Assembly (NCBI GenBank): GCA_964441355.1
Contig: CAYTXY010000002.1
Coordinates: 1 to 33,612 of the forward strand
Direction of reading: 5' to 3'
From: an uncultured bacterium
Lineage (GTDB): Bacteria > Chlamydiota > Chlamydiia > Chlamydiales > SM23-39
Length of the DNA stretch: 33,612 nucleotides
Shown piece after piece: positions 5,906 through 25,174 of the stretch (its first letter is position 1; the number at the start of each line of letters is the position of its first letter). The notes below the pieces were generated by a model. The model saw nothing but the letters and a program-made list of their open reading frames with translations. It made no database searches and was not told where the DNA came from. The translations under genes were made by a program, and so were the position numbers.

Positions 5906-5944
5906 CAGTTTCAAGCCGTGTGCAGTATAGACCTATTATTCAGG

Positions 5945-6637: not shown

Positions 6638-6682
6638 GGTGAGGCATATCCACAGACTCTTCTAATGGCGAAAAGCAACCAT

Positions 6683-6757
6683 TTAACGATACAACGACTT
6701 GAACGATAGTATCTTCTATGTTGTTTTTTTCTATTGTTATATCGTTCTTGTCGTTGA
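6683..6757. promoter_or_regulatory. Inverted array of AACGAY boxes (3 + 3), candidate operator
   Basis: AACGAT 6685-6690, AACGAC 6693-6698 and AACGAT 6702-6707 face ATTGTT 6733-6738, ATCGTT 6741-6746 and GTCGTT 6750-6755, with the dyad centre near 6720. It shares the 18-mer ATTTAACGATAYAACGAY with the 17077 site. It lies in the only sizeable gap inside the minus-strand block. Confidence 0.45.
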
Positions 6758-6823
6758 TTTTGATTTGCAAGCGATGACGTCTGGGAAGGTAGGGGTTATG
6801 CAATACACTCGGTTGGTGACAAT

Positions 6824-8353: not shown

Positions 8354-8360
8354 GGCAGGG

Positions 8361-9410
8361 TCATTTGGAAACAGGTTTTAAAGCCTTATTCAGTTCCTCT
8401 TTGTCAATCGTTGCGATCCAAATTTCACAATCGTCTTTGCCATAGGCGACATAGATGTAAGGATCGCTGACTACAAACCCACCAGGAAAAATCACTCTTT
8501 TGTCACAGGAGGATTGAGTATAAAACCCGTCAGCTACGATCGGAATCGGAGTGTACCGAGTGATGGCAAAAGGGGGATTTGGGGAGAAAGTAAAGGCCCC
8601 CATAAAGTAGTGCCAGAGGTCCCACCCATAGGAAGCAAAGGAAGAGAGAATTGTCCCTGAATGGAAAAAGGAGAGGAATTCTCCGTCGACGAGCTGGGGC
8701 GGCGAGCTCTCTCTTAAAGGGCCGAGCTCCCACTCAATGGAAGCCAAGGTCTCATAGCAACGGTAGCAAGCTCCGTCGCTGAGGTTGGTATAGAGGATTT
8801 CGTGAGGATTGACCGTATAGCTGATGAGGAGTTTTTTGTCCCATTCGAAAGGGGCCCAGTTTTTAGTCCAAAGATAATGGAATTTTTCTTGGTGAAGAAG
8901 TCTTAGGGGAGCCGATGTCGAGTATCGATTTTGATTTGCGAAGAGCTCCACGATATGCATATCTCTTCGATCCAAGTAGGTCGTATTGTTTACTTCCATA
9001 TTGTCATTGTAGATCAGGAAGGTTCTGCCTCGATAAGAAAAAAGCCTTGCGTCTTCGGACTGGGATTGAGTTTTACTGTTTTTGGCCCGAGTGCTGATGA
9101 GCTGCGGCTTTGAGATGGGCTCGAAGGATTCATCTAGAAGGACAATCCCGATGTAGCTTAGCCCGGGAATCGAATATCGGTCGGGGCAGTAACGGAAGCA
9201 CATCAAAATCCCACCGTCGACTTTCAAAATCGAAGGGTTGAACGAGTCGGGATAATCTTTGAAATCGATCCTCTTCGTCCTTACGACGATTTTTTGGCGG
9301 AAAGCTATCTCTTCGAAGTCCTCTCTGATAGAGGCAAAACACCCTAGAGAAAGGATCAATGAGATAAAGAATAAAGATAGGAGTGGATCGTGTTTAAATC
9401 GACGGTGCAT
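8361..9410 (-). CDS. Exported glycan-processing-like protein, beta-propeller-type glycosidase/phosphorylase-like (349 aa)
   Basis: Shares the NPSI.., EDARLF (EDPRIF) and KNWAPF (KNWLPF) motifs and their order with the C-terminal 330 aa of the upstream gene. ATG 9410 gives MHRRFKHDPLLSLFFISLILSLGCFAS. It overlaps the upstream gene by 55 nt. The biochemical family is not certain. Confidence 0.6.
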   Translation of the reverse strand: MHRRFKHDPLLSLFFISLILSLGCFASIREDFEEIAFRQKIVVRTKRIDFKDYPDSFNPSILKVDGGILMCFRYCPDRYSIPGLSYIGIVLLDESFEPISKPQLISTRAKNSKTQSQSEDARLFSYRGRTFLIYNDNMEVNNTTYLDRRDMHIVELFANQNRYSTSAPLRLLHQEKFHYLWTKNWAPFEWDKKLLISYTVNPHEILYTNLSDGACYRCYETLASIEWELGPLRESSPPQLVDGEFLSFFHSGTILSSFASYGWDLWHYFMGAFTFSPNPPFAITRYTPIPIVADGFYTQSSCDKRVIFPGGFVVSDPYIYVAYGKDDCEIWIATIDKEELNKALKPVSK

Positions 9411-10855
9411 AGATAGGCTTTGTTGTCCTCAATTCCAATGGCGAGAATCAATTGGTTCTCTTCATGATTCAAAGTCATACTCCCGCAAAACTCAACTCCT
9501 TGATGGAGAAATGTAAAGGGTTTTGAGATCTTTTTTACGAAAAAGCGATGGTCGAGATAGACGAACCGATGAAGATAGCAGCGGGATTGGTCGGAGGTGT
9601 AGGTCACTTCATGGATGAGGACCAAATAGCCATCATCAAATGGAATCGGTCCCGCAGACCCCCTGAACTGGGTAAAATCGTAGGTTGGCTCATAACTTAA
9701 ATCTAGGATGCAGTCGCCCGTTTCGATGTCGAGTTGGTAGATGACGAAGGGAGAATAGGAATAGATGACATAGAGGGTCTCGTCTTTGATGAAGGGAAGC
9801 CAATTCTTCTCGCAGCGAGAAGGGTCGGGTCCATTCAGAAGGAGCAATTTCTCGACGTTTCCATTGCTGCCCATTTTACAGAGAGAGATTTGAGGAATGC
9901 CATCGAGCGTATTGTCGCGCGTTGTGCAAGTAAACCAAGAAGATCCTTGAAACTTAAAAATCCGGGGATCTTCAAGTCCCTGCACGAAGCAAGAGGGGCG
10001 CCGTTCCCGCACTAGGTTTTCGATGATCTCCTGTTGGGAAAGGATCTGGAATTCTTTCGAATATTGAACGAGAAAATTCCTTGTATTGAAATATCCCGTA
10101 GAATCGATCGTTTCAAACTCTTTTGCCCCCTTTTGGGTGTAATTGACCGATCTACAAATGACCTCGTACCCATTTTCCGTCTTCACGATCGAAGGATTCA
10201 TTGGATGGTACCGCTCGCTACTCTCTTCTGTAATCAGGGGAAGATCGATTTCAATGGGTCGAAAGTGGGCGTTTTTGAGATTTTGCGTGTAATAAAGGAT
10301 GTTGCTGTACGCCTGGTTTTTTACATACCAAGGGACCTCTTTTCTGAGGAGAAGGTCGCTTGCTGCCTTGTATCCATCCTCTTTGAAACGGGTATAAAAC
10401 GATACGATCGAAAGCTCCTCGTCAAAGTGGTAGTCGGAAGATGGGAAAAGGCGAGAGCCGTGTTTTGCAAATATGTAAGCGAGATCGGGTTCCCCATGGA
10501 GCCTGTAATGAGCGGCAATATTGAGAAGAGGGTTGGGATGGCTGGGATCGGTCTGATGGGCCTCAAGATACCAGTAGAGGGCGTTTTGCCATTCGTTGGT
10601 CCGTTCATAACACTCCCCTAGATGAAATTTAGCGGCCCAAGTCTGAGCTTTATCACCCTCTTTTTTTTCGAGTCGAATTTTATACCATGGGATGGCATCT
10701 GCATATCGATGTGTCGAAAGATAGGATTCGGCAAGGTGAAAAATATGGTCGGTATTCTCGGGATTGCGCTTCAGCGACTCCAAGTAAAACTCAATCTCAT
10801 TTGTCCATAAAGAAAATGAACTTAACAAAAGAAGAGACTTAGAGAGACTCTGCAT
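9356..10855 (-). CDS. TPR-repeat protein fused to the same glycan-processing-like domain (499 aa)
   Basis: N-terminal TPR-like helices (FHLAESYLSTHRYADAIPWYKIRLE...ALYWYLEAHQTDP). The C-terminal domain is paralogous to 8361-9410. ATG 10855; N-terminus MQSLSKSLLLLSSFSLW. Confidence 0.75.
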   Translation of the reverse strand: MQSLSKSLLLLSSFSLWTNEIEFYLESLKRNPENTDHIFHLAESYLSTHRYADAIPWYKIRLEKKEGDKAQTWAAKFHLGECYERTNEWQNALYWYLEAHQTDPSHPNPLLNIAAHYRLHGEPDLAYIFAKHGSRLFPSSDYHFDEELSIVSFYTRFKEDGYKAASDLLLRKEVPWYVKNQAYSNILYYTQNLKNAHFRPIEIDLPLITEESSERYHPMNPSIVKTENGYEVICRSVNYTQKGAKEFETIDSTGYFNTRNFLVQYSKEFQILSQQEIIENLVRERRPSCFVQGLEDPRIFKFQGSSWFTCTTRDNTLDGIPQISLCKMGSNGNVEKLLLLNGPDPSRCEKNWLPFIKDETLYVIYSYSPFVIYQLDIETGDCILDLSYEPTYDFTQFRGSAGPIPFDDGYLVLIHEVTYTSDQSRCYLHRFVYLDHRFFVKKISKPFTFLHQGVEFCGSMTLNHEENQLILAIGIEDNKAYLCTVDLNTIHSYLYSLSH

Positions 10856-11615
10856 AATTTCTCATCGTCTCTATGAGCGCCGCGGTTTGATCCGTTTTCT
10901 TGATCCAAAGCAGCGTCCCTTTTCCTTGAGGGATGAAAATCCTTTCATAGTCTTCCGGTGTTGCCACTTTTCTGTAACCGTAAATGTCACCCTCCTGAGG
11001 GGAGATGGAAGAGGCGCAATCATGAGCCAATATAATCGGTGCCTTGTCAAAAAGTAGCTGTACAAGAGCTCCCCGGAGAAGCGTGGAGGGGTCCACCAAA
11101 GCCAAGTCCACTTTATTGAACTTCATGAGATTGCCGAGGAAGGTCTTAAGCTCCGTCTGATAGGCGCCATCAGAGGGAACTTGACCTGTCGACGCATAAC
11201 TCATTTCCGCTTCACTGAGTTTTACGCTCGCAAAGTACTTATAGGGCGCCCAGGCAAAATCGCCGGAATAATTGCTAAAATAGGCAATGGGAATCCAATT
11301 CGAATAACCTTTGTAAAGATCCAGACAGTACTTGATCCAATCGGGCTTCAATTGGCCGATAATGAATTCTACAGAGAGTACTTTCGTGCACTTGTCCAAG
11401 AAGTATTTCGTCGAAAACCCAAGGCCGAATTCTAAAAGGGTCTTCACTTTATAGTTTTCGAAGATCTTTTGAATGTGTTCAATATGGTCGCATTGACCCG
11501 TTTCCCTTCCTGTTTGGACCAAAAACTCGTAGGTGATGTCGTCTGCCTTGGTTGGTAGGGGAAGGGTCGCATGGGCAAAATTAATTGCGGAAATGAATAA
11601 TAATAAAAACTTCAT
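10839..11615 (-). CDS. Hypothetical exported protein, possible methyltransferase-like fold
   Basis: TLLEFGLGFSTKYFL resembles SAM motif I, which is weak evidence. The ATG overlaps the upstream stop (ATGA) and the 3' end overlaps the next gene by 17 nt. N-terminus MKFLLLFISAINFAHA. Confidence 0.55.
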   Translation of the reverse strand: MKFLLLFISAINFAHATLPLPTKADDITYEFLVQTGRETGQCDHIEHIQKIFENYKVKTLLEFGLGFSTKYFLDKCTKVLSVEFIIGQLKPDWIKYCLDLYKGYSNWIPIAYFSNYSGDFAWAPYKYFASVKLSEAEMSYASTGQVPSDGAYQTELKTFLGNLMKFNKVDLALVDPSTLLRGALVQLLFDKAPIILAHDCASSISPQEGDIYGYRKVATPEDYERIFIPQGKGTLLWIKKTDQTAALIETMRNYAESL

Positions 11616-12532
11616 AATTTCTCTTTGTTCAAATAGTTTGGGCCGCCGTTGTCAGACGGGGCTTTGGGCAAGTTGGAAACGATATCTTCCGCGACGGTGT
11701 AGAGTTTGATTCCTCGGGGGAAAATATATTCCATGTCGTAGGGAAAAAAAATCTGATGTGCTTTAAAATATTGAAGCAGTTTTTGGATGCCGGACCTGCG
11801 GATGATCATTGAAGTAGCTCCGCTTCTTGCCCCCACTTCGTAAAAATCTGGGCTCACCATTGTTTTTTTTGTGAAATCGTTCGTTGAAAAGCCGAGAAAA
11901 TCGGGCCTCTTGCCCGCCCAATAGGTGGTTGTATAGTTCCCACTCGAATCGCGCATGTCCCGGTCCGTGAAAAGCATATCCCAATTTTCCCGTCCTACCA
12001 GGTGATCCAGCTTTTCGATCACGTTCGGGATCGTTCTGGGATCAAGAAGCACTTCGATATCGTCTTCCATGACCCAAATTGTCTCATAACCAGAATCAAA
12101 AGCATCCTGGAGGACCGAAATATGGCTCAGACAGATCCCCACTGCGCCTCGGGACATACAGTGGCAAAAATAACTCTGCCCATAATTTTGGATGATTTCA
12201 TGGCTAGGCTCGAAACGGCTGTCCAGCGGATAGCAGGTTCCTAAGATGCCCCCTTCCATTTCGATCGAATACACTAGACCCACATCATTCAGAGTTTCTA
12301 GACTCAGCTCCCAGCCGTTGACCGCTGAAAATCGGTGCGGATAGATCTGGAAAGGAGCGAGTTGATCGAGAGAATTTCTAAATTTTTCAGGCCTTTGATC
12401 GAGGTTAATCATGTAAATATAATCGATCCCGCTCATAGAATGAACCGGCGATTTGTTCAACGCCTTTTTCAGATGATCTTCGATATCAGAAAATAGAGAT
12501 GCCGAGAGCGTAAGAATGATCAAGAACCACAT
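11612..12532 (-). CDS. Glycosyltransferase family 25
   Basis: IDYIYMINLDQRPEKF...FSAVNGW...CMSRGAVGICLSHISVLQDAFDSGYETIWVMEDD. The first ATG is at 12532 (MWFLIILTLSASLFSD). The tracked ORF extends to a GTG at 12574. Confidence 0.9.
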   Translation of the reverse strand: MWFLIILTLSASLFSDIEDHLKKALNKSPVHSMSGIDYIYMINLDQRPEKFRNSLDQLAPFQIYPHRFSAVNGWELSLETLNDVGLVYSIEMEGGILGTCYPLDSRFEPSHEIIQNYGQSYFCHCMSRGAVGICLSHISVLQDAFDSGYETIWVMEDDIEVLLDPRTIPNVIEKLDHLVGRENWDMLFTDRDMRDSSGNYTTTYWAGKRPDFLGFSTNDFTKKTMVSPDFYEVGARSGATSMIIRRSGIQKLLQYFKAHQIFFPYDMEYIFPRGIKLYTVAEDIVSNLPKAPSDNGGPNYLNKEKL

Positions 12533-12599
12533 ATACCGCTCGTGATTAAAAAATCGGTTCTGGCGGCTCCCCACCCCAAAAACGATGCGTTTTTAACGA

Positions 12600-13364
12600 T
12601 CAAGAACCACATAGGATCTCAGCAGAAGTTGTATAAGGGCGATGTTTAGGATCTTCACGATGGCCGCCGTTCGGCCCCTTTCCATAGGCTGGGTATCGAT
12701 AGATCTGGTTCACATCGTTCACATTTTTGAATAGCCATGGGGATTTTTGTAGCAAATCGTCGCGGATGAAGAATAAATTCATTCCGACATTTTCTGCGTA
12801 GACCAAGGAATACCCTTTTGCCCTCCCTAAATTGTACATAGCTAGGAGGCTGGCGCCAAAATAGTTGGTGTCATCTCCACAGTAATAAGCCCTGTATTTA
12901 GCGACCTTATCAACATCTGGCAAATGAGTCGCATTATATTTGATGAGAACAACTTGAGGTTTATATTTGGGATCTAGATTCTTCCAAATGTAAAATTCGT
13001 TATAGTTGTCTATGCAAAGCAGATCGAACTCCTCTGGAACTCTATATTTTATAAGGAGTTGATTGATGTTGTCCGCTGTAACGAACTCCTTGTAATGCTT
13101 GTACTCCAACTTTTCGTGCGCCCGATCCATCAACAAACAGTTCCACCCCTGAAGACGAAGCAGATAGGAGTTGCTGCCGGTAATTCCGTCGCCGGCGCTA
13201 AACTCTACAACAAATCGAGAGGAGGGGGGGATTAGTTGAAAAATTTGCGCGATGATCCCATCTTCCCCATGCAAACTGTAGAGCCTCTTTTCATAGTTTG
13301 AAAGATCGATCTCTGAGCCAAAGAGGCTGGAGAAAATACAAAATGCAGCCATCAATTTATTCAT
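12600..13364 (-). CDS. Hypothetical exported protein (254 aa), possible methyltransferase-like
   Basis: LHGEDGIIAQIF...FVVEFSAGDGITGSNSY motif. N-terminus MNKLMAAFCIFSSLFGSE. ATGA overlap with the upstream gene. Confidence 0.55.
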   Translation of the reverse strand: MNKLMAAFCIFSSLFGSEIDLSNYEKRLYSLHGEDGIIAQIFQLIPPSSRFVVEFSAGDGITGSNSYLLRLQGWNCLLMDRAHEKLEYKHYKEFVTADNINQLLIKYRVPEEFDLLCIDNYNEFYIWKNLDPKYKPQVVLIKYNATHLPDVDKVAKYRAYYCGDDTNYFGASLLAMYNLGRAKGYSLVYAENVGMNLFFIRDDLLQKSPWLFKNVNDVNQIYRYPAYGKGPNGGHREDPKHRPYTTSAEILCGS

Positions 13365-14032
13365 AACGACTTCTTTTTAAATAATATGCAGTTTCCGTTA
13401 TCGATCAGGCGAACCACATCGCACTCTGCGGTCAAAAGATCTACGGCATCCTGCCTTTCCCTCCAAAGGGTGTCGTTCATCCAGATATATCCGCCGGGCC
13501 GTACTTTGGGTAAGTAGAGCTCCACATCCTGGATTGAACAGAATTCACTGTGATTTCCATCGAGGTATAGGATATCGATTGAGTCGATTGAAGAGGCAGC
13601 TTGTTCGGAAGTGGCTCTGATCGTTTCCACATAATCTTCGAGATGTTGTTTTCTCAGCATATTGTTATATGATTGATAGATGTAATGTATATTCAATGAC
13701 CCCCACCATTTTAAATTCATCGCATCTTCGATTGGATCGAAATATTTAATGCATTCGATTTTATCCCAAGGATCGATTCCTATAATGACTCCAGATTTAA
13801 GATATTTCAGAGCTGAGGCGACAGGGAAAAGCGAGGATCCTCCAAACACTCCGATCTCGACGCATATATCGGGCTTTGTTTCCAATACCAAGTCGATGAA
13901 TGCCAACGCTTTGTCTTTTGAGCACCACCCCTCAAGAGTGGGTAAGACGTTGCAGACGTTTTGTTTCAGAGCATCGATTGTTTCACCTTTAAGAGAAAAA
14001 ATGCAGCAAAATAAAAATACTAACTGTTTCAT
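13361..14032 (-). CDS. Class I SAM-dependent methyltransferase (Methyltransf_24-like)
   Basis: CVEIGVFGGSSLFPVA, GIDPWD, LYLDGNHSE and GGYIWMND motifs. Paralog of 14029-14715. N-terminus MKQLVFLFCCIFSLKGE. Confidence 0.8.
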   Translation of the reverse strand: MKQLVFLFCCIFSLKGETIDALKQNVCNVLPTLEGWCSKDKALAFIDLVLETKPDICVEIGVFGGSSLFPVASALKYLKSGVIIGIDPWDKIECIKYFDPIEDAMNLKWWGSLNIHYIYQSYNNMLRKQHLEDYVETIRATSEQAASSIDSIDILYLDGNHSEFCSIQDVELYLPKVRPGGYIWMNDTLWRERQDAVDLLTAECDVVRLIDNGNCILFKKKSL

Positions 14033-14715
14033 TTTTTATACCAAATTCCCCATTGGCATGCTTCATTGATTTCGGCAATTTTGTGGCAGTGAGTGTTTAA
14101 ATAATCTATGGCACGCTGAGTTGTGGCAACCCCATTTTCGAACCAGTTCATATCGTCGAAAACGATCCAGCCCCCCTTTTTGACCAAGGGAACCCATTTC
14201 GTGACATCGATGTAAGAGGTCGCGTCAGAATGATTTCCATCGATGTGCAATAGGTCAATGTTGTAGATGGGGGCGGCGTCTGCGGAAGTAGCGCGAATCA
14301 GTTCGACGTGATCTTGAAGCCCTCGCTTCTGAATTACATATGTCAAGTGCCTTAGAACCTCTTCGTGATCCACATGGCTCCAAAAAGCGATATTGCTCTC
14401 ATGAGAAGCGCCTTCGATGGAAGCCTGATTGTCCCAGGGATCGATGCCGTAAATTTTTCCCTTTTCTCGCCTTGCGAATAGGGTATAGGCCATGGGGAGA
14501 AGCGATTTTCCTCCCCATACGCCGATTTCAACAATGGTCTTGGCTTCCGAGGCCATGATAAGATCGATCAAAATCGAGGCTTTTTGGCGCGAGCACCAGC
14601 CGTGAACTTCGTCCATGCAAGCGTAAGCCTCGGTTTTATTTCCGATGGTTGCAGGGCGCATGTCTACAACATATTCATAATGAGACTCGGGCTGTGCATA
14701 AAGCATTTCTTGCAT
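14029..14715 (-). CDS. Class I SAM-dependent methyltransferase (Methyltransf_24-like), no signal-like N-terminus
   Basis: IVEIGVWGGKSLLPMA, GIDPWD, LHIDGNHSD and GGWIVFDD motifs. It is the only full-length island product with a hydrophilic N-terminus (MQEMLYAQPESHYEY). Confidence 0.8.
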   Translation of the reverse strand: MQEMLYAQPESHYEYVVDMRPATIGNKTEAYACMDEVHGWCSRQKASILIDLIMASEAKTIVEIGVWGGKSLLPMAYTLFARREKGKIYGIDPWDNQASIEGASHESNIAFWSHVDHEEVLRHLTYVIQKRGLQDHVELIRATSADAAPIYNIDLLHIDGNHSDATSYIDVTKWVPLVKKGGWIVFDDMNWFENGVATTQRAIDYLNTHCHKIAEINEACQWGIWYKK

Positions 14716-15641
14716 TATTTCTTCTCGTAATTAGGAGCGCCGTTATCGGAGGGTGCGCCGGGCTGCGTTGACACGATATCGAATCTAGCCGAATAGAGCT
14801 GTATTCCGTTCGGAAAGACAAAGTCGATGTCGTAGGGGAGAAAAATGTGATACTGCTTCAGAAAATCGAGAATCTTTTTCATTCCGGACCTGCGGACAAT
14901 CATCGAATAGGCGCCGAAACGAGAGCCGATTTTTTTTATGTTGGGGCTAACATCAACTCTTTGAGAATATTGATTGGGATTCTCAGGATAAAAATTGGGC
15001 CTCCAAGCAAATCCGTAGCTGGGAACATATTCTCCTCGTGTGTTTTTTGTATCAGGATCGGTGAAAAAAACATCCCAGCCGTTTTTCCCTTGAAGGCGGT
15101 CCAATTCGTCGATAATGTCGGAGAGGATATGAGGATTTTGAATCACGTCCACATCGTCTTCCATAACCCATATCGTCTCATAGCCTGAATCATATGCGTC
15201 TTGCAGGATGGAAAGATGACTGAGAGAGATGCCGATCGCGCCTCTAGACATGCAGTGGCAAAAGTAATTTCTACCGAGGACGCTGACTGGCTCGTGTTTT
15301 GGCACAAGGTCCTCCTCATAGTAGGTTCCCCATTTTTCCGTGGTCATCCATGGCTGGAGACAGACTCCCACGTCATTGATAGTCTCTAAAGAAAGTTTCC
15401 ACCCATTGACTGCTGAAAAGCGGTAGGGTGTGATCCCATAAAAGCTTAACTGCTCTTTACATTTTTCGAACTTTTCAGGCCGCTGGTCCAGGTTAAGCAC
15501 ATAAATGAAATCGATGTTTCGCATGGAATAGGTGCCAGACTTTTCAAGCGCGGGTTTAAAATGATCTGGAATCCGCGCTTGCAGTTCTGCGAGGGACAAG
15601 ACAGAAATCAAAAATAGAATTCTTAGAAGTGCGGCTTTCAT
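14715..15641 (-). CDS. Glycosyltransferase family 25
   Basis: IDFIYVLNLDQRPEKF...FSAVNGW...CMSRGAIGISLSHLSILQDAYDSGYETIWVMEDD. The first ATG is at 15641 (MKAALLRILFLISVLSLAELQA). The tracked ORF extends to a TTG at 15683. Confidence 0.9.
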   Translation of the reverse strand: MKAALLRILFLISVLSLAELQARIPDHFKPALEKSGTYSMRNIDFIYVLNLDQRPEKFEKCKEQLSFYGITPYRFSAVNGWKLSLETINDVGVCLQPWMTTEKWGTYYEEDLVPKHEPVSVLGRNYFCHCMSRGAIGISLSHLSILQDAYDSGYETIWVMEDDVDVIQNPHILSDIIDELDRLQGKNGWDVFFTDPDTKNTRGEYVPSYGFAWRPNFYPENPNQYSQRVDVSPNIKKIGSRFGAYSMIVRRSGMKKILDFLKQYHIFLPYDIDFVFPNGIQLYSARFDIVSTQPGAPSDNGAPNYEKK

Positions 15642-15715
15642 AAGAGGCAAGATCTTATGAAAATCGTGAAAAAACAGGAACAAAAATTTTTTAGGCGGTT
15701 GGGCCTCTCAGCAAA

Positions 15716-16966
15716 CTACTTTAGTATAGGCTCTTCACAAAAGCCTCGCCTCGCAGCTATTTTTTCTCTCAGCTTTTCAATGGGGAACGTCCTGTTGGTT
15801 TCAGTTAGAAGACGCCATGAATCTGGGAGATCTGCATTTGTCAGCAGTTTATTGCAAGCATCTAGCGATTCTTCGTAGTGGTTTGCATAATAGGAACAAA
15901 TCGAAAATTGGAAGAGAAGTCCATAATCTTCGATCCAGTCTACATTGAAGAGGGCGTCTTTCGCTGAGGGTTTTGGATTCAGTTCGTGCGTTTTCAAGAT
16001 TCGATAGGCTTCTTCGTATCGGCCGAGGTGGTTCAAAATTTCGGCAATGAAATAGACCGGTTCAGCGCGATGCGGACGATAGGCGTGGGCGTCCTTGTAA
16101 GATTCCAGGACGACATTTGAAGGAAATTTGAGGTCCCGCAGGATGTGGGATATCTGTATTTTCGACCAGAACACTTCCTGGTCCCAGCCGTTCATGGCAA
16201 TCCTTTTCTGGTACATTTCGAGGGCTTTTCCTTTCTCCCCTGCATCGCGGTAGCTCTCGGCCAAATAAAATGCGTAGCGTGCATTGTCCGGCTCTGAGTT
16301 GAGCCCTTTTTCTAATAGCTGCACATTCTTCATGAATTTTTGCTTCAAATCACGAGAGGCGGCGCCATCATCGAGCGTGATGTATCTAACCGTTTCGAGC
16401 AGTTCGGAAGTGTAGGGATGAGGACAATCCAAGTACTCATGGGTTACGCCGATATACCTCCAGGGGAGGTCCCCTTTGATGATCTGAGGCCTTTGGTAAG
16501 TAAAGCCTTTGCTGCCGCGCCACATGCAATATTGATCTTGAGTCAAGTGGGGAAGTTGTGTCTGACCGGAGAACTCCAGCACATCGTCGGCATCCATAAG
16601 AAGGATATATTCGGCTTTATCTTTTGAGAAAGCGATAGCTTCAGAGCGAGTCTCTCCCCAATTTTTCCACGGAATTTCATGCAGCTCTCCCGGAATCTCC
16701 GATAGATATTCCTGAATGATTTTCTGAGTGCCGTCAGTCGATCCAGTATCTACGATGACCCAGTAGTCGATGATTGGCATCACCGAATCTAAACAACGGG
16801 TGATTACATGAGCTTCATCCTTGACAATCATGTGTAGACAAAGTTTTGGAAGCTGTAGGGGTTGGATTTCAGTATCGGGAGCCGCTTCTCCGGTCGTCTC
16901 GTGATAGAGTTCTTGGGAAACAAGCGGAACGATAAAGGCGAAAAGGCAAAAAAGCAATCTGTGCAT
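15716..16966 (-). CDS. Family 2 glycosyltransferase fused to a C-terminal TPR module
   Basis: CLHMIVKDEAHVITRCLDSVMPIIDYWVIVDTGSTDGT and LLMDADD are GT2 motifs. The C-terminal TPR (FYLAESYRDAGEKGKALEMYQKRI...) is homologous to the N-terminal TPR of 9356-10855. ATG 16966 is preceded by AGGAG at a 5-nt spacing. The ORF extension to 17140 has no support. Confidence 0.85.
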   Translation of the reverse strand: MHRLLFCLFAFIVPLVSQELYHETTGEAAPDTEIQPLQLPKLCLHMIVKDEAHVITRCLDSVMPIIDYWVIVDTGSTDGTQKIIQEYLSEIPGELHEIPWKNWGETRSEAIAFSKDKAEYILLMDADDVLEFSGQTQLPHLTQDQYCMWRGSKGFTYQRPQIIKGDLPWRYIGVTHEYLDCPHPYTSELLETVRYITLDDGAASRDLKQKFMKNVQLLEKGLNSEPDNARYAFYLAESYRDAGEKGKALEMYQKRIAMNGWDQEVFWSKIQISHILRDLKFPSNVVLESYKDAHAYRPHRAEPVYFIAEILNHLGRYEEAYRILKTHELNPKPSAKDALFNVDWIEDYGLLFQFSICSYYANHYEESLDACNKLLTNADLPDSWRLLTETNRTFPIEKLREKIAARRGFCEEPILK

Positions 16967-17076
16967 ACGTGCTCCTAAAAAAAAGCAAGAAATGATTTTA
17001 AGCGAGCTGGGATTTTTTAGGTTCTTTTTTGTGTTTTTTTTATATGTAATGGACAATTCGTGTGGCTGGAGAGGAA

Positions 17077-17182
17077 AACGATTTAACGATATAACGATGA
17101 GAAAATCGGACGATTTTGTCCTTCCGTTGCTTTGCGACAATCTTCTTTTTTATCGTTATATCGTTAAATCATTGTTATCGTT
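17077..17182. promoter_or_regulatory. 22-nt inverted repeat built from AACGAT boxes, candidate operator in a divergent promoter region
   Basis: AACGATTTAACGATATAACGAT (17077-17098) faces ATCGTTATATCGTTAAATCATT (17152-17173), matching at 21 of 22 positions when reverse-complemented. Boxes have an 8-nt period, with an extra ATCGTT at 17177-17182. The site lies between the divergent genes starting at 16966 (-) and 17380 (+). Confidence 0.5.
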
Positions 17183-17379
17183 GCCCTTGCTCCTCAACGC
17201 GAAATTTTTTGTCTAGTACACGGGTTTTTTCTAGGTGCTCTCTGTTCGGCTAAAATAAAAACTTGACTGTTTTTTTTCTTAATGCGATCCTAACCGTTTC
17301 TTTTTTTAGAGTTAACTCATCAGCTACCTGGGTTTGAGTTTAACTCTTGGAAACAAACCCGGGTTAAAGTGATGTGAGA

Positions 17380-18966
17380 ATGAAAAAAAAATGGATCCTT
17401 CTTTTTTTGATGATCAGTGCCTTTATCCAAGTAAAGGCTCAATTGAACTGGTCGGCCCCTGTTACCATTTCGGCGTCGACCATGGATAATTCCTCAGACC
17501 CTCATGTGGTCGTGGATACGAGTGGGAACGCGACGGCGGCGTGGGTGGAAAATGGTTTTGTGTTTGCGAGCTCTCAGCCTGTCAATGGTACGTGGGGAAC
17601 TCCAGTCGCTCTATCGGGTTCTGGAGCCTCTGCCCCTAGGATTGGATGTGATTCGAGCGGAAATGTGTCGGCGATCTGGCTTGCCTCTGATGGGAAGGTC
17701 ACATTATCCACTTTGCCTTTTGGTGGAAGTTGGAGCTCCGCTACTGCTGTCTCTTCATCGGGAGCCGCCACTCCTGTGATGGCGGTCAATGCATCGGGAG
17801 CCATGGTTGCCGTCTGGCAAAGGAGCGGGTTTATCGAATCTTCGGGGATGCAATGGGGTGGTTCATTGAGCCTGGTCAGCACGCTCTCCCCTGCTAATTC
17901 GAGCAACCCCGATGTCGCAATCGGCGCTAATGGGACAGTGGTGGCAGTTTGGCAAACGATTTTGGGTACAGGGGCGGCAACTGTCGAGTCAGCGACCCAA
18001 AAAGGGGGTGTCTGGGGCTCGGCCGTCAGAATTATTCCTGTTTCATCGGCATTTAGTCATAATTTCCCGGTTGTCTCCGTAGATGCGATGGGGAATGCCG
18101 ATGTCATTTGGTTCCGATATTTTGTAGACGCGAATGGAAACTATTCCAACGTATTCGTTTTTTCGGCAATTTTGCCTGCATCGAGCACCAGCTGGAGCCT
18201 CCCGATTCAGATTTCAGATACAGGCATTGGAAACCCAGGTGCCCTATTCATCGACATTGCAACCGATAGCTCTGGGAACAAGGTGGCTCTTTGGTCGATT
18301 TCTTACGATGGCGAGTCCTACGTCGTGGAATCGGCTTTAAAAACTCCTGCAGGAATGTGGACCCCGGTAAGCTTCTTGAACAGCATCCCGAATATCTACA
18401 CTTTTAAAGGGAGTCTAAGTAGCGACTCGATAGGAAATTCTACAGCAATTACCATGCTCTTTGACGGCTCCTCTGTAAACATCCAATCCGCAGAAACAAG
18501 CACTACGAACATTACTGGTGAACCCGTTTGGTCATCGGAGACCACGATCTCTAGTGGATCCGATAATGGGTTTCCAGTGGTGGGCTCAAATTTCAATGCA
18601 GGGGGACAAGTTTCCTATGCGACAGCCGTGTGGCTTTCTTCGGACGGGACGAACACAACCGTTCAAGCTGCTTCAGCATCGCAGACGCCGGTGGCGCCTC
18701 CATCCAACCTTGCGGTCGTGCAAAGCGTCGATGATTTTGGCGTCTTTAAAGATTATTTCAACACGATCACCTGGACTGCTAGTCCAAGTGGAGACGTTCA
18801 GTTATACTTGATTTACCGTAACGGCCTCTTGATCAATGAAGTAGCTCCCAATGCGACCCAATTTATCGACCATAATACAGTGCAAAATGGATCTGTCACT
18901 TATGGTGTAGCAGCGCTTGATGTCAACTTTTTCTTAAGTCAAATTATAAATGTAAGCTTTCCTTAA
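17380..18966 (+). CDS. Secreted repeat protein (beta-propeller-like, about 45-50 aa repeats) with a C-terminal FN3-like domain
   Basis: Signal peptide MKKKWILLFLMISAFIQVKAQ. Recurrent units of the form W..P..[IL]S...(8-10)..P.V..D..GNA.A.W. The C-terminus PPSNLAVVQS...ITWTASP...YLIYRNG...TYGVAALD is FN3-like. ATG at 17380; the tracked ORF begins at GTG 17374. Confidence 0.8.
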   Translation: MKKKWILLFLMISAFIQVKAQLNWSAPVTISASTMDNSSDPHVVVDTSGNATAAWVENGFVFASSQPVNGTWGTPVALSGSGASAPRIGCDSSGNVSAIWLASDGKVTLSTLPFGGSWSSATAVSSSGAATPVMAVNASGAMVAVWQRSGFIESSGMQWGGSLSLVSTLSPANSSNPDVAIGANGTVVAVWQTILGTGAATVESATQKGGVWGSAVRIIPVSSAFSHNFPVVSVDAMGNADVIWFRYFVDANGNYSNVFVFSAILPASSTSWSLPIQISDTGIGNPGALFIDIATDSSGNKVALWSISYDGESYVVESALKTPAGMWTPVSFLNSIPNIYTFKGSLSSDSIGNSTAITMLFDGSSVNIQSAETSTTNITGEPVWSSETTISSGSDNGFPVVGSNFNAGGQVSYATAVWLSSDGTNTTVQAASASQTPVAPPSNLAVVQSVDDFGVFKDYFNTITWTASPSGDVQLYLIYRNGLLINEVAPNATQFIDHNTVQNGSVTYGVAALDVNFFLSQIINVSFP

Positions 18967-18975
18967 CAATATTAA

Positions 18976-20565
18976 ATGGGTAATTTTATGAAAAATTTAT
19001 TAATTTTTTTTATTTCGATGATGAGTCTTTCTCAGTTGACCTGTGGCAATCTCCATTGGACATTTCCCCCTCAGGCTCTTTCCACTCCAGGAATCAATGC
19101 AAGCGATCCTAAAGTTGCAATGGATCCGAATGGGAATGCCGTTGCAGTTTGGATTGAAAGCGGGGTTCTGAAATCCAAATTCAAATTAGCTGGTTTTGAT
19201 TGGGGCGCTGTTGCGACCCTTTCAGCAGCGGGTGCTTCATCTCCTGTGGTGGCTTTAGATTCTCAGGGGAAAGCGACTGCTGTGTGGATACAGGGCTCTT
19301 TAATCCAAGCGGCAACAAAAAATTACTTCGCAGCTTGGAGCGCTCCTGTCTCCTTATCCAATACGAATGCAACCAACCCCAGTTTGGCGGTAAATGGAGC
19401 AGGCTATGCGGTCGCCGCATGGGCAAGAAATGGAAACATTGAAGTTTCCGTCAAGCCGATTGGGGGCAACTGGCAAGCCCACAGTCTGATTATGAATCCC
19501 GGGGGCAATGCAGTATATCCTAAAGTGGCAATCGGAGGCGCCGGTTCCAACGCCATCGCATATCTCGCCTGGCATAGTACTGCAAATCCAGTCGATATAG
19601 TATACACTTCTTCAAAACTTCTATCTTCTGGATCCTGGAGTAATGCCACAGCAATTTCGGCCAATTCAAGCCAAGCAGGCTATGCCCATATTGCAGTCGA
19701 TGGAAATGGCAATGCAACAGCCGTTTGGTTTAGTTTCAATCAGACGGGCTCGGTCTATTCTTCCGTAATCGTGCAGGCGGCTACCAAGCCTGTGGGCGGC
19801 CAATGGAGCGCTCCCGTTTCTCTTTCAGATCCAGGGATGCGCGACCCGAGCACACTCTTGGCTCGAGTGGCTTACGATGCCACAGGGAATGCCATTGCCC
19901 TCTGGAGCAATTCATTCGATAATATGACTTTCAACATTCAATCTTCCATACACCCTGTTTATGGAAATTGGATGGAGCCTACAGATCTCATCGCTGATAA
20001 TTTGTACTCTTTTCAAGCAGGCCGCTCGGTCTGTTCGTTCGGAGATGCGTTGGCTCTCTATCTATTTTACAACGGAGTTGCTTTGCAGATCCAATCATCG
20101 GAGTTGGATATCACAGGCTTTATGAATAGCGTTTGGTCGGTTCCACTGACTATTTCCACAGGATTGCAAAATGGTTCCCCATCCGTAGCGGCAACCCTGA
20201 TGGGAAATGCCGTCAATTCAACTGCTGCTTGGGTCAACTCTAATGGAGGGACGAATTCCGTTGTAGCTTCTACCGGAACCAAGGCTCTTGTCTTGCCCCC
20301 TTCCAATCTTGCAGTGACGCAATCTTCAAACAACTTTGGCGTGTTTACTGAATATTTTAACACCCTAAATTGGCAGGCGAGCACCGATCCGAATGCTGTA
20401 GGATATCTCGTGTATCGCAATGGGGTATTCCTCGCTCAAGTCCCTGCGAATGTTTTGCAATTCATAGATAACAATCAGGTGCAAAATGGAAGTGTCACCT
20501 ATGGAGTGGCATCTCTGGACAGCCTGCAGTCGCATAGCCCCATTATCACCATTAGCTTCCCTTGA
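18976..20565 (+). CDS. Secreted repeat protein with C-terminal FN3-like domain, tandem paralog of 17380-18966
   Basis: Same architecture and length (529 vs 528 aa) and the same C-terminal PPSNLAVTQS...YLVYRNG...TYGVASLD. The alternative ATG at 18988 gives MKNLLIFFISMMSLSQLTCG. Confidence 0.8.
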   Translation: MGNFMKNLLIFFISMMSLSQLTCGNLHWTFPPQALSTPGINASDPKVAMDPNGNAVAVWIESGVLKSKFKLAGFDWGAVATLSAAGASSPVVALDSQGKATAVWIQGSLIQAATKNYFAAWSAPVSLSNTNATNPSLAVNGAGYAVAAWARNGNIEVSVKPIGGNWQAHSLIMNPGGNAVYPKVAIGGAGSNAIAYLAWHSTANPVDIVYTSSKLLSSGSWSNATAISANSSQAGYAHIAVDGNGNATAVWFSFNQTGSVYSSVIVQAATKPVGGQWSAPVSLSDPGMRDPSTLLARVAYDATGNAIALWSNSFDNMTFNIQSSIHPVYGNWMEPTDLIADNLYSFQAGRSVCSFGDALALYLFYNGVALQIQSSELDITGFMNSVWSVPLTISTGLQNGSPSVAATLMGNAVNSTAAWVNSNGGTNSVVASTGTKALVLPPSNLAVTQSSNNFGVFTEYFNTLNWQASTDPNAVGYLVYRNGVFLAQVPANVLQFIDNNQVQNGSVTYGVASLDSLQSHSPIITISFP

Positions 20566-20578: not shown

Positions 20579-20601
20579 CCCCGGTCGAAAGACCGGGGTT
20601 T
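20579..20601. terminator. Bidirectional intrinsic terminator hairpin between convergent genes
   Basis: CCCCGGTC GAAA GACCGGGG is an 8-bp GC-rich stem (20579-20586 / 20591-20598) with a GAAA loop, followed by TTT. It lies 13 nt after the plus-strand stop and abuts the hemH stop. Confidence 0.6.
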
Positions 20602-21575
20602 CATCCCTTCCTGATCAGCGTTTGATTTGAAAAGAGAACCGATTGTTTGGCAATTGTTTGTAGACCCGAGATCCATTCAGGATCGAGGTTGAGGGCTGGA
20701 CAGCGATGGGCATTGAGTCCGCTCGCGCGGATCAAGGGCAAATAGAGCTCTTCGATCTCGAAAAGGGTTTCGATGTGGTCGGAGGTAAAACTAATGGGGA
20801 CAAAAACGATTTGTTTCCTCTCCTTAGCCCATGATAAAGCGATTTTGCATTCTTCTTCTGTGTAGGGGCGGAGCCATTCCCCCCGTCCGAATTTCGATTG
20901 ATAGGCAAGACGACCCGGGATATTCGGGAAACCTTCCATCACTCCCCTGAACGAACGCGCGCACTCCTCTTGGTAAGGATCCCCTTCGTCGATAAACGCT
21001 CGAGGCACTCCGTGCGCAGAAAAAAAGAGGAAGGTGTCTTTGTCATCCAACTTCCGATCCGCCAGGAACCCGGAGATCCGTTTTTGCCACGCCTGGATGA
21101 AAGAAGGATGTTCCGCATAAGATTTGACCCAACGGAGTTTTTGGACAACCTCTCTAGGTAGATTCTCAGAGAAAAACCTTGCGACGCTTCCTGTGGTCCC
21201 ATAGCAAAATTGGGGAAATAGCGGCAGAGCGCGGATTTCGCTAAGCTCGCATTTTTCGATTTGGGAGAGCGATCTCCTATGCGTTGCGGGCAGGTAGCGG
21301 TGGAAAGTGAAAACAGGGACTCCGCATCTTTCTTGTAGGGCGGCTCTCAGGGCTTCCGTATCCTCATAGATCGGCGAAAATCCGATCCGTTCATAGTCAA
21401 CGCGTATTTTGAGGGCGCGCTTTTTCGCGATCCGCCTGAACATCCATTTGTGCAGCCAGTCTGGGAATTTGGTGCGGATCACGTCGCGGTCGCAAAGGAG
21501 TTCTTTGAGAAACGGCTCGAGTTCCAAAGCTTCGCGAGGGCCGCCGAAATTGACGAGAAGATAGGCCAGTGGCAT
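20601..21575 (-). CDS. hemH: Ferrochelatase
   Basis: N-terminus MPLAYLLVNFGGPR, plus the FFSAHGVP motif and ISFTSDHIETLFE, which are typical of HemH. 324 aa. Confidence 0.9.
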   Translation of the reverse strand: MPLAYLLVNFGGPREALELEPFLKELLCDRDVIRTKFPDWLHKWMFRRIAKKRALKIRVDYERIGFSPIYEDTEALRAALQERCGVPVFTFHRYLPATHRRSLSQIEKCELSEIRALPLFPQFCYGTTGSVARFFSENLPREVVQKLRWVKSYAEHPSFIQAWQKRISGFLADRKLDDKDTFLFFSAHGVPRAFIDEGDPYQEECARSFRGVMEGFPNIPGRLAYQSKFGRGEWLRPYTEEECKIALSWAKERKQIVFVPISFTSDHIETLFEIEELYLPLIRASGLNAHRCPALNLDPEWISGLQTIAKQSVLFSNQTLIRKG

Positions 21576-22714: not shown

Positions 22715-25174
22715 CTAAATAGTCACTAGTCTTTTGATTCTCGAAAGAGATTTGGGGTCAAAAGTGCCTAGCACTCCCATTCCTGGATTGTTCATTAATT
22801 GATTCAGTTCTGATTGAAATGTTTTGGGGCTTTCTGTTTTGAAAATTAACTGTTTATTTTTGCTTTCCATGAGTTCAAGAAAGAGCGGCAATTCTTGATT
22901 TTCAAAACTAAAACCAGGTTTGTCATCCCATTTAAGGATAATGCAGTCTGCTTCCGTTGCTTGTTTTTTGACATTCTTTCGATATTGCCACTGTTCTGAA
23001 AACTGGTTTTGCTGTGCAAACATGTCCAGTGAGGAATTGAACTCTTCTAGAGAAAATTCATATATTTTCATACCGGGTCGCACCAGAGTATCGTGATTGT
23101 CATTCAAGCCCATGATGATGCCCATTGAAGCATTCGGAGTTCTGAAATCGATCGTAGATTGTAGGTTAAGTTCCTTATATTTCTTGAGAAAGCGGCTCCC
23201 CATTCGATCGCTCAACTTATCAAAAGCAATAGCATCTTTTAATCGCTCTGCAAAATGAGGTGCGTTAGATGTAAGGATTGTTTTTATGTGTCTTCCCTTT
23301 GCGTTTTTAATATTTTCTTTGTTGAGGAGTTCTGAGATGATATTTTCAATTGGTGAGTTATAGATTCCAAAATCATTCAAATCTTCGATGACAAGAAATT
23401 CGTAGTCTGAGAGAGGAAGGGTCTGCAACGCATTCCTTTCTATCGTATCGCTCGATAACCATAAGGTGTTTTCGTTTTTTAATGCTTTCCGAATCGCTGT
23501 CGTTTTTCCAGTTCCAGGCGATCCTGCAATGAAAAGCCCGCATTCATCTTGCTCTGCTTTCAGCGCTTGAATCCAGCCAATAATTTCTTTTTGTTCAGGG
23601 GTCCAGGCCCAGGAGGCATCCGTTGACAAGTCGATGGGTAGAGGTTGAATAATTTTGTGCCAAGCGTGCTCTTTTCGGTAATCTTTTCCCCGCACCTCTA
23701 GTATGCGAAGGCGTCCGCTACAGTCCCAAGAATCTCTTTCTGTTTTTACTGTCTCAAAGGGAGGTGTATTTGCATTGACTAAGATTTTCTTTTTGGTTCT
23801 TTCAGCATAAGTAAACATTGCCCTGGTTACATCAGTCAGCGCGGAGAGATGCTCATTCGTATCATCCACAAAAAAGAGGTCGGCATTTTTCCATTGGTTT
23901 TCGAAAATCGAGATGATGTCGTCAATCATCATCTCTTTCTTATCTGAATTCAAATACTTCTTTAAGATCTCGATGTAGCGAGCCTCTGAGAGAAGTTGAT
24001 TATGGAAATCAGCTGTAACAATTCGTTTCCCTTGATTTTTAAGTTTGGCGACTATGTCATATGAACAATGTGTTTTGCCAGTGCCGGGATCTCCATATAC
24101 GATTAATCCTTGATATTCATCTTTTGAACAATCTGTATAGAATTGATGCATGACATTAACAAGTTGTATCTGAAATGGATTTTTTTGTTCAAAATTTTTG
24201 ATAAAATCAGGATGTTGAATTTCGATTGAATTCGATGGTGGATCGATCAGATCAACATGAGGATGAATGATCATCACACTGCTCGATCCGAACTTCTGGA
24301 ATGCAGAGGTAAGCTCGTTGTTTTGTTGGATAGCGGGCAATTGACTCATCGCTTGAAATGTTTGGGATAAATCTCTCGATCTAGAAGCATATAAAAAGTG
24401 AGCGCAATTATCCTCAATCCAGCGACGCATCTTGTCAGGCATCAATCCCATTAAACCGGTCACGGGGACAGTATTAATAGGCAAAAGCCTATATTTGGCT
24501 TGAAGAACCTTGTCATTGGCTAGGTGCATCAGATGTCCAGCTCCACCAAAGAAAATAGAATGAGAATTAGAATTCAGACTGGCTATTTCGTTGTTGATGG
24601 CGGAGTTCCGAATTTCGCTTGCCACTTGAATTCTCGTCTCTTTACTACCAAACGGATCTACGCAATAAATATTGACGCCCATTTTTAAGAGAATCGGCAA
24701 TAAAATCTGGTAATTTAAAAATTTTTCTTTCAAATTGAATGGTTTAGTTATTATTTTATCAAGATGAGATCGGTCGACTGTTTCTGTCAGAATATCGTGA
24801 ATCCCTAAACTATGTGATGCAAGGCCTACCATAAGTTCACTAATTAAACTGTCATGCTCCTCATGATTTTCTCCAACCCCGATCAGGAGCTTTTTTCCTT
24901 CCGCTTCGGCAAGTTTCAATTCCTTTTGGATTAATGAATGGGCTCTATCGTAGAGTGAAGTAAGTTCAGAGAGTAGAGGATTGCTTTTCCCACTTAAAGA
25001 GTCAGAGTCTATTTGAATATTTTTTACGCGTTCGGGAGAGCAGAGTGAAGGCGCGTCGAAAATTCGAGACACAGCTTCTTGTATTTGCTTTAGGTTGGGA
25101 ACGACCAAAGCTGTGATTGCTGCAGCTACTGCGATCCCAGTGCGCACTGGGAGGGGACAAATGGGATATCTCAA
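22715..25174 (-). CDS. Large multidomain protein: N-terminal hydrophobic segment, ChaN/Tiki/EreA-like domain and two P-loop NTPase modules
   Basis: GENHEEHDS and FFGGAGHLMH match the paired GxxH motifs of the ChaN/Tiki superfamily. Walker A GDPGTGKTH pairs with Walker B LFFVDD. A second Walker A GSPGTGKTT pairs with FLVIEDLND. TTG start at 25172-25174. The gene is visibly more AT-rich than its neighbours. Confidence 0.7.
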   Translation of the reverse strand: MRYPICPLPVRTGIAVAAAITALVVPNLKQIQEAVSRIFDAPSLCSPERVKNIQIDSDSLSGKSNPLLSELTSLYDRAHSLIQKELKLAEAEGKKLLIGVGENHEEHDSLISELMVGLASHSLGIHDILTETVDRSHLDKIITKPFNLKEKFLNYQILLPILLKMGVNIYCVDPFGSKETRIQVASEIRNSAINNEIASLNSNSHSIFFGGAGHLMHLANDKVLQAKYRLLPINTVPVTGLMGLMPDKMRRWIEDNCAHFLYASRSRDLSQTFQAMSQLPAIQQNNELTSAFQKFGSSSVMIIHPHVDLIDPPSNSIEIQHPDFIKNFEQKNPFQIQLVNVMHQFYTDCSKDEYQGLIVYGDPGTGKTHCSYDIVAKLKNQGKRIVTADFHNQLLSEARYIEILKKYLNSDKKEMMIDDIISIFENQWKNADLFFVDDTNEHLSALTDVTRAMFTYAERTKKKILVNANTPPFETVKTERDSWDCSGRLRILEVRGKDYRKEHAWHKIIQPLPIDLSTDASWAWTPEQKEIIGWIQALKAEQDECGLFIAGSPGTGKTTAIRKALKNENTLWLSSDTIERNALQTLPLSDYEFLVIEDLNDFGIYNSPIENIISELLNKENIKNAKGRHIKTILTSNAPHFAERLKDAIAFDKLSDRMGSRFLKKYKELNLQSTIDFRTPNASMGIIMGLNDNHDTLVRPGMKIYEFSLEEFNSSLDMFAQQNQFSEQWQYRKNVKKQATEADCIILKWDDKPGFSFENQELPLFLELMESKNKQLIFKTESPKTFQSELNQLMNNPGMGVLGTFDPKSLSRIKRLVTI

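Follow-up and report, generated by a model that had tools for sequence, protein, structure and literature searches.

Paired propeller-FN3 proteins encoded beside an exported glycosylation island in Chlamydiota are candidate acceptors of O-type glycosylation

We analyzed a window of 33,612 nucleotides (contig CAYTXY010000002.1, from an uncultured member of the Chlamydiales) in which two adjacent genes, here called A and B, lie beside an island of glycosyltransferase (GT) and methyltransferase genes. The two genes encode paralogous proteins with signal-like N-termini, a predicted eight-bladed beta-propeller, and a C-terminal FN3 domain, and their relatives are linked to homologs of the island across chlamydial genomes. 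We infer, with a probability of roughly 40%, that A and B serve as extracytoplasmic acceptors of O-type glycosylation, with the co-exported enzymes of the island carrying out the modification. We favor this reading because of the export signals, the affinities of an adjacent GT with a TPR module (GT2-TPR), the Ser/Thr-rich composition of A and B, and the lack of catalytic-looking residues in their family. The initial annotation of this DNA had proposed that the pair are surface or secreted proteins, rich in N-x-S/T sequons, that may be the glycoprotein substrates of the island. Its observations were confirmed and its interpretation was partly supported: A and B would be reasonable substrates of the island, more likely through O-linkage.

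Genes A and B are in one reading frame and B starts 9 nt past the TAA of A, so they probably form one operon. A GTG two codons 5' of the A start codon is a possible start that would yield a protein of 530 aa. In B, an ATG at 18988 (MKNLL...) is an alternative start that is closer to the family consensus. The coordinates of the open reading frames (ORFs) bore out the tandem arrangement and the lengths first assigned to the products (528 and 529 aa), and the proteins are indeed paralogs, with 36% identity across their full length (E 1e-93). Both N-termini are n/h/c-type signal segments, as had been annotated, and the same is true of all 48 aligned homologs. A lipobox Cys is absent from the signal segments of A, B, and the 48 homologs, and lipoprotein status was ruled out on this basis.

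An AlphaFold2 model of A, built on the 48 homologs, had a mean predicted local distance difference test (pLDDT) score of 93.4 and a predicted template modeling (pTM) score of 0.89. It contains eight four-stranded blades spanning residues ~22-436, followed by a seven-strand sandwich at residues 442-527. The initial annotation had recognized beta-propeller-like repeats and counted eight or nine of them; the propeller was confirmed in the model, and both the modeled blades and the repeat register give eight units, not nine. The repeat units of A and B are 42-60 aa long, start with W-[STG]-x-P, and include a strand resembling D-x-x-G-N-A-x-A-x-W. The strict pattern [DN]-x(1-3)-G-[NKA]-x(2-4)-[AVI]-x-W is matched by five of the eight blades in A and by four of the eight in B. 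In the alignment of 48 homologs, nearly every invariant position is W, G, P, S, or a turn D/N; each blade has two invariant Trp residues, and only one acidic residue, E57, is near-invariant. This alignment revealed no conserved Arg/His/Tyr cluster, no invariant Arg or Tyr in the propeller, and no catalytic-looking constellation.

When modeled alone, the C-terminal 92 residues formed a seven-strand beta-sandwich of FN3 topology (pLDDT 96). Foldseek matched this domain to the FN3 modules of chitinase A1 (27% identity, template modeling [TM] score 0.69-0.71) and GH84C (TM 0.81) and also to those of fibronectin and tenascin. A profile of the domain searched against the PDB matched FN3-bearing chains, among them a DUF3472 protein (E 1.1e-5), YesW (0.002), and the chitinase A1 FN3 module (0.054). 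The model and its structural matches agree with the FN3-like C-terminus of the initial annotation. At the very C-terminus, nearly every family member has the motif ...[VI]-[ST]-F-P (18952-18963 in A and 20551-20562 in B), and the conserved terminal dipeptide could act as a signal for sorting or assembly.

Neither A nor B had a Pfam match at E ≤ 1, fn3 included, in single-sequence searches, and no NCBIfam model scored above its threshold. The PDIAV-motif lipoprotein model NF053835 gave 37.3 bits for B and 14.4 bits for A against a cut-off of 90; membership was rejected on these scores and on the missing lipobox Cys. The family is new and unannotated; its fold and its kind of genomic setting are known, and what is unusual is that the entire enzyme set of the island appears to be exported. 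Our literature search turned up no earlier account of the family, nor of GTs exported by environmental chlamydiae. All homologs are "hypothetical proteins" of about 510-560 aa from metagenomes and metagenome-assembled genomes (MAGs). We scanned one genome per GTDB species with two peptide patterns derived from a 12-sequence alignment and found the family mainly in Chlamydiota MAGs, including Parachlamydiales, Rhabdochlamydiaceae, and Candidatus Sacchlamyda, with several labeled "Verrucomicrobia." Outside Chlamydiota, the scan gave a few matches that are distant or partial (loci L037-L040), and no cultured species was among the genome matches to the two patterns. DNA nearly identical to the window was found in soil, rhizosphere, and root metagenomes.

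A neighbor-joining tree of 72 family ORFs split cleanly into an A-clade and a B-clade. B is single-copy at each locus, whereas lineage-specific duplications of A are frequent and have produced arrays of two to four genes. The B type evolves more slowly: mean ortholog identity is 51.6% for the B type versus 43.3% for the A type, and it is higher for B in 231 of 231 locus pairs. Within one locus, A and B share 35-48% identity. These data point to an ancient paralog pair with a maintained division of labor; a recent tandem duplication was rejected, given the ancient clades and the low identity within loci.

We searched a HMMER profile of the family against 1.8 billion representative proteins and obtained 30,816 matches at E ≤ 1e-3 and 3,713 at 1e-30; a profile search of a 5.8-billion set returned no further named distant relatives. 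The distant matches are large extracellular multi-domain proteins that combine the same blades with BNR_4/SBBP signatures and with CBM_25, Big, TIG, and PKD domains. The chlamydial family contains 22% ± 2.6% Ser plus Thr and 10% charged residues, compared with 12-22% (most 12-18%) and 10-23% (most 13-23%), respectively, in the distant relatives. Relative to most of these distant relatives, the Ser/Thr-rich, charge-poor composition is specific to the chlamydial family.

The conserved neighborhood is the strongest evidence of this analysis for a link between A/B and the island. We used phmmer to compare all window proteins with the ORFs of 40 related loci and counted over the 33 that were non-redundant. 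In 26 of these 33 loci, at least one island-gene homolog flanks the propeller array, usually less than 400 bp away. The GT92-like gene is represented at 23 loci, Methyltransf_24 at 11, GT25 at 9, and GT2-TPR, the GH130-like gene, and the TPR protein at 10 each. Where present, the GT2-TPR ortholog often directly adjoins the propeller array. Independent gene calls with precomputed Pfam assignments agreed on the linkage. Gene order and strand vary between loci, for example between L009 and the window, yet the linkage persists down to ~35-45% protein identity and across Parachlamydiales, Rhabdochlamydiaceae, and other Chlamydiota MAGs. Because of this conservation, the functional tie to the island that was first proposed is upheld, and it is better supported by the neighborhood than by sequons. 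A second AACGAT array inside the island, described below, points in the same direction.

The related loci also differ from the window in several respects. At most of them (L009 at 8722-9642, L017, L021, L022, L028, and others), a GT92-like gene lies directly beside the propeller array and matches the GT92 protein of the window at E about 1e-35 to 1e-41. The window has GT92 only at a distance from A and B, with none adjoining them, and L033 has both GT92 types. At L034, a long MAG contig, every ORF of the family and of the island is fragmented (6631-20930), through either long-read frameshift errors or decay of this whole copy of the cluster. The L003 array lies near rpoN (sigma-54), a TcdA/TcdB-like Gly_transf_sug GT that begins with a hydrophobic segment, and a fusion of topoisomerase I to SWIB of a kind typical of Chlamydiota (coordinates 15981-17354 and 18114-19196 in L003, and 20435 onward in L003/L004).

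Sec-signal-like N-termini are present on nearly all of the island GTs and methyltransferases, on the GH130-like protein, and on the TPR protein, and none of these proteins is multi-pass. Independently called orthologs at L001, L003, and L007 also carry them. The sole exception is the methyltransferase at 14029..14715, which has no signal-like segment, and neither does its L001 ortholog. Since A, B, and the island enzymes carry Sec-type N-termini, they would share a compartment. We found no lipid-carrier pathway in the window (initiating transferase, flippase, polymerase, or GT-C enzyme). This absence speaks for sugars being added one by one directly to an exported acceptor and against a classical polysaccharide route. 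It is unusual for bacteria to export GT-A enzymes.

GT2-TPR, the divergent neighbor of A, is a candidate protein GT. Its nearest solved sequences were GmaR (1.7e-9), the peptide S-glycosyltransferase SunS (2e-6), and the peptide glycosyltransferase ThuS (1e-4), all of them weak matches, and its top NCBIfam match was the SunS family, below threshold. GT2-TPR and GmaR have in common the order of a GT2 domain followed by TPRs. GmaR is the flagellin GlcNAc transferase of Listeria, with the same GT-then-TPR order (PMC9638930), and in FlmG it is the TPR module to which multiple paralogous protein substrates bind (PMC7591256).

The TPR protein of the island has orthologs of 711-713 aa at L001 (43..2178) and L003 (3221..5362), and these carry an extra N-terminal GT2-like domain. 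These relatives thus have two GT2+TPR enzymes, while the TPR proteins of the window and L009 are without the GT2 part. The first two ORFs of the window (17..1101; 169 and 192 aa) correspond to ORFs at L033 (4906-7478) that are considerably longer. The window edge probably truncates the first ORF, and the island probably continues past the start of the window.

Under the favored acceptor reading, the Ser/Thr-rich, charge-poor propeller proteins would be exported first. GT2-TPR, as a GmaR/SunS-like enzyme, would then recognize A and B and start an O-type linkage. The GT92, GT25, and RXYLT1-like transferases would extend the glycan, which the O-methyltransferase-like enzymes would methylate, and the outcome would be a glycosylated pair of envelope or surface proteins. 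The N-x-S/T sequons would have no part in this mechanism.

Parts of this arrangement resemble known systems. In Tannerella forsythia, TfsA and TfsB are adjacent paralogous S-layer glycoproteins that are co-transcribed and served by a glycosylation locus that includes methyltransferases. In the Bacteroidota system, the glycan is built on a lipid carrier and transferred in the periplasm at D-S/T-[AILVMT]. A and B are likewise two adjacent paralogous exported proteins linked to a multi-gene glycosylation locus with methyltransferases, but they differ from TfsA and TfsB in fold and phylum, and the window has no carrier-pathway genes. As with GmaR and flagellin in Listeria and FlmG and the flagellins in Caulobacter, a GT-plus-TPR enzyme is encoded beside candidate substrates that are Ser/Thr-rich tandem paralogs. 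In contrast, those systems are cytoplasmic and act on flagellins that are exported later, whereas here the candidates are propellers and both enzyme and candidates carry Sec signals.

The sequons that had suggested glycosylation in the first place can be accounted for without it. A contains exactly 15 N-x-S/T sequons and B exactly 10, in agreement with the approximate counts of the initial annotation. Their densities (2.84 per 100 aa in A and 1.89 in B) are 4-7 times those of neighboring proteins, and the 22 other window proteins range from 0 to 0.9. Raw density is thus high for proteins of this length, as had been claimed; an enrichment beyond composition did not hold up. Sequon density is high because A and B are rich in Ser, Thr, and Asn: Ser plus Thr make up 23% of A and 18% of B, compared with roughly 7-14% in neighbors (mostly about 10%), and Asn makes up 6.6% and 9.1%, compared with roughly 2-7% (mostly about 4%). 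In composition-preserving shuffles, A exceeded expectation (15 observed, 7.7 ± 2.4 expected, P = 0.005), and B did not (10 observed, 8.4 expected, P = 0.32). The excess vanished across the 48 family members, for which the observed/expected ratio was 1.10 (mean z 0.35), with A of the window as the extreme, single outlier. The ratio was 0.98 for 22 A-type and 1.09 for 22 B-type orthologs from genome loci, and the nearest genome ortholog of A, at L009, has nine sequons. Sequons recur in the columns of N50, N95, and N239 of A, which contain the Asn of the blade turn G-N-x-[ST], and in the N37 column. The blade-turn Asn is invariant, and the following Ser or Thr is present in only about 60-70% of homologs (30 of 48 sequences at N50), whereas the N37 column switches with Asp (VNASDP versus VDASDP). 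Four to five of the 15 sequons in A are copies of this blade-turn motif and are therefore not independent events. The conserved sequon columns are structural blade-turn Asn residues.

We weighed four other readings against an acceptor role, the first of which is that A and B are N-glycoproteins modified by the island at their N-x-S/T sequons. Exported proteins with many sequons and adjoining GT genes do recall the PglB system of Campylobacter and the HMW1C system of Haemophilus, and A alone stands above its shuffles. However, the PglB-type extended sequon D/E-x-N-x-S/T occurs in neither A nor B, and we found no STT3/PglB oligosaccharyltransferase, multi-pass GT-C enzyme, or GT41/HMW1C-like enzyme among the scanned ORFs of the window. 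The window also contains no TpsB-type gene, and A and B have ordinary Sec signals. With sequons neither conserved nor enriched family-wide, their richness does not serve as evidence of N-glycosylation, and we regard this reading as very improbable. A more serious contender, tentative but less probable to us than an acceptor role, is that A and B are lectin-like multivalent binders of the island's possibly O-methylated glycan, or of host glycans, with a matrix, anchor, or adhesin role. A Foldseek search of the PDB with the propeller placed Photorhabdus PLL/PHL lectins (PDB 5C9L, 5MXE, 6RG2, and 8Q83) in all of ranks 1-22 (E 7e-13 to 3.5e-11, probability 1.0), so that this lectin-like fold is the best structural match to A. 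These lectins are seven-bladed and bind fucose and O-methylated sugars, and their sugar sites use Trp CH-pi stacking between adjacent blades (PMC6943638). They also occur as tandem paralog arrays (PMC12203525). The blades of A and B are similarly short (about 45-50 aa), four-stranded, and Trp-rich, of the "W-motif" kind, with the two invariant Trp residues in each blade, and the genes beside them include at least five Methyltransf_24/sugar O-methyltransferase-like genes. Their FN3 domain is most like the FN3 modules of carbohydrate-active enzymes, and the distant relatives join blades to CBM_25 and Ig-like domains. In Vibrio cholerae, the FN3 protein RbmA and the eight-bladed propeller proteins Bap1 and RbmC are encoded in the vps region and bind its polysaccharide, a parallel in which secreted FN3 and eight-bladed propeller proteins are encoded with glycan-synthesis genes.

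Several observations count against a lectin. The PLL/PHL matches have only moderate TM scores (0.66-0.70, target-normalized), a root-mean-square deviation of ~6.5 Å, and ~15% identity, and propellers cross-match easily. A and B have eight blades rather than seven and an extra FN3 domain. No PLL/PHL chain was retrieved at E ≤ 10 when phmmer and the 48-sequence profile were run against all PDB sequences, and these searches returned nothing beyond propeller noise (E ≥ 0.02) from any solved chain. On blade number and sequence, A and B fail as members of the PLL/PHL family. The Trp residues may be purely structural, and a binding role would leave the island with no identified acceptor. The blades of Bap1 and RbmC are of the FG-GAP/VCBS type, bind calcium, and have beta-prism lectin inserts; these two proteins and RbmA have no sequence relationship to A and B, and none of the three was among the top 50 fold matches of A. 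An enzymatic role, in which A and B would be propeller glycoside hydrolases (GHs), lyases, or transglycosylase-like enzymes that trim or remodel the glycan, seems improbable. The second tier of Foldseek matches comprises sialidases, GH propellers, the GH145-type hydrolase BT3686, the ulvan lyase LOR107, and CylK, and distant relatives carry BNR_4/SBBP signatures. A and B have no BNR/Asp-box or other Pfam match, and the single near-invariant acidic residue, with no Arg/His/Tyr cluster, does not resemble an active site. As Asp-box sialidases they were rejected because S-x-D-x-G-x-T-W is absent, the motif spacing differs, and the catalytic Arg triad with Tyr/Glu is missing. Moreover, the retention of two diverged paralogs with lineage-specific duplications of A looks structural rather than catalytic. 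A Foldseek search of viral structures returned phage G tail-like, giant-virus collagen-repeat/propeller, and sialidase-like proteins, which are generic matches and gave no functional lead. It seems about equally improbable that the linkage to the island is only historical and that A and B, as generic surface or periplasmic proteins of chlamydiae such as adhesins, have a function unrelated to glycosylation. Some neighborhoods do contain other envelope genes, such as those for an autotransporter, intimin-type barrels, or Legionella_OMP, and the AACGAT array of the window is not conserved outside its lineage. Nevertheless, because the association survives rearrangement, strand changes, and deep divergence, chance inheritance of gene order is not an easy explanation.

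The acceptor reading itself faces several difficulties. Seven of the 33 loci have no island homolog within 10 kb, which also favors a merely historical linkage. The signal peptides were judged by eye and hydropathy only. No RNA sequencing run was found to contain gene A, and the matching DNA runs came only from soil, rhizosphere, and root metagenomes. The matches of GT2-TPR to GmaR and SunS are weak and mainly cover the GT2 core; moreover, GmaR, SunS, and FlmG act in the cytoplasm, whereas GT2-TPR carries an export signal. The best fold match of the modeled propeller is to lectins, which favors a role in binding. The supply of donors outside the cytoplasm is a serious objection: GT-A enzymes need nucleotide sugars and methyltransferases need S-adenosylmethionine (SAM), and neither is known to be available in a bacterial periplasm. 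A bolder and unlikely reading is that environmental Chlamydiota have a Golgi-like pathway outside the cytoplasm in which a dozen Sec-exported GT-A enzymes (GT2-TPR, GT92, GT25, and RXYLT1/GT47-like), sugar O-methyltransferase-like enzymes, and a GH130-like protein would act stepwise on A and B with host nucleotide sugars and SAM. The proposed site would be the periplasm or the lumen of the host vacuole. The only precedent that we can cite comes from Chlamydia trachomatis: this species secretes enzymes of glycogen metabolism into the lumen of its inclusion and makes use of a UDP-glucose transporter of the host (PMC4829429).

The coordinates of A, B, the island, and the intergenic elements are listed in Table 1. 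The divergent geometry of A and GT2-TPR and the AACGAT control region that they share were described in the initial annotation and were confirmed here: the 413-bp spacer contains an inverted repeat, with AACGAT present three times on each strand. The window contains 33 copies of AACGAT, of which 11 fall in three short intergenic stretches of the island. The arrays look like the operator of a shared regulator, and their presence in both the spacer and the island is consistent with common regulation. In the 40 related loci, the array was not conserved; it was absent as AACGATNNAACGAT, and no comparable clusters were found upstream of family genes. The array is lineage-specific and therefore unusable as comparative evidence. 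A promoter scan scored no sigma-70-like promoter in the spacer. Downstream of B, a G+C-rich hairpin precedes the convergent ferrochelatase gene and is possibly a bidirectional terminator that closes the A-B unit; the terminator scan gave it no score. Farther downstream, a gene for an 819-aa AAA/STAND-type NTPase (22715..25174, minus strand) coincides with a dip in G+C content (0.38-0.41 at 23000-25000, compared with 0.45-0.56 around it) and may have been acquired horizontally.

Table 1. Positions of genes A and B, the glycosylation island, and intergenic elements in the window
Feature	Position	Strand	Basis
Gene A (A-type paralog), 528 aa from ATG	17380..18966	+	ORF list
Gene A signal peptide	about aa 1-20, 17380-17439	+	n/h/c pattern
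Gene A eight-bladed beta-propeller	about aa 21-436, 17440-18687	+	AlphaFold2 model
Gene A blades	aa 22-69, 70-115, 116-157, 158-209, 210-269, 270-324, 325-381, 382-436	+	repeat register and model
Gene A FN3 domain	aa 437-528, 18688-18963	+	model, Foldseek, and profile
Gene B (B-type paralog), 529 aa, architecture as in A	18976..20565	+	ORF list
Gene B propeller	about aa 25-437	+	
Gene B FN3 domain	about aa 438-529, 20287-20562	+	
GT2-TPR, GT2 + TPR glycosyltransferase with signal-like N-terminus, divergent neighbor of A	15716..16966	-	Pfam Glycos_transf_2 (1.2e-10) and TPR
Rest of island	523..15683	both	Pfam
GT92	1485..2405	+	Pfam
Methyltransf_24 genes	2285..3046, 5234..5905	+	Pfam
Further plus-strand island genes, function unknown		+	
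Methyltransf_24 genes	5945..6637, 13361..14032, 14029..14715	-	Pfam
RXYLT1/GT47-like	6824..8353	-	Pfam
GH130-like	8361..9410	-	Pfam
TPR protein, 499 aa	9356..10855	-	Pfam
GT25 (two genes)	11612..12574, 14715..15683	-	Pfam
Unknowns	10839..11615, 12600..13364	-	
Divergent spacer between GT2-TPR and A, 413 bp	16967..17379		sequence
28-nt imperfect inverted repeat of AACGAT units, 8-nt spacing	17077-17104 / 17146-17173		sequence
Further AACGAT unit	17177-17182		
Second AACGAT inverted array, intergenic inside island	6685-6760		
AACGAT half array, intergenic inside island	12581-12600		
Hairpin CCCGGTC-GAAA-GACCGGG, between convergent B and ferrochelatase	20579..20596		read from sequence
Ferrochelatase	20601..21575	-	

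For the study of repeat proteins rich in Ser, Thr, and Asn, these results show that N-x-S/T counts mislead unless composition and repeat structure are controlled. The family has so far been without a Pfam or NCBIfam model, and its blade repeat extends to some 30,000 representative proteins. The export signals on nearly all of the island GTs and methyltransferases are hard to square with textbook bacterial glycan synthesis. If A and B accept or bind the glycan of the island, they would make up an envelope or surface module that is conserved among soil and protist-associated chlamydiae and has so far escaped annotation.

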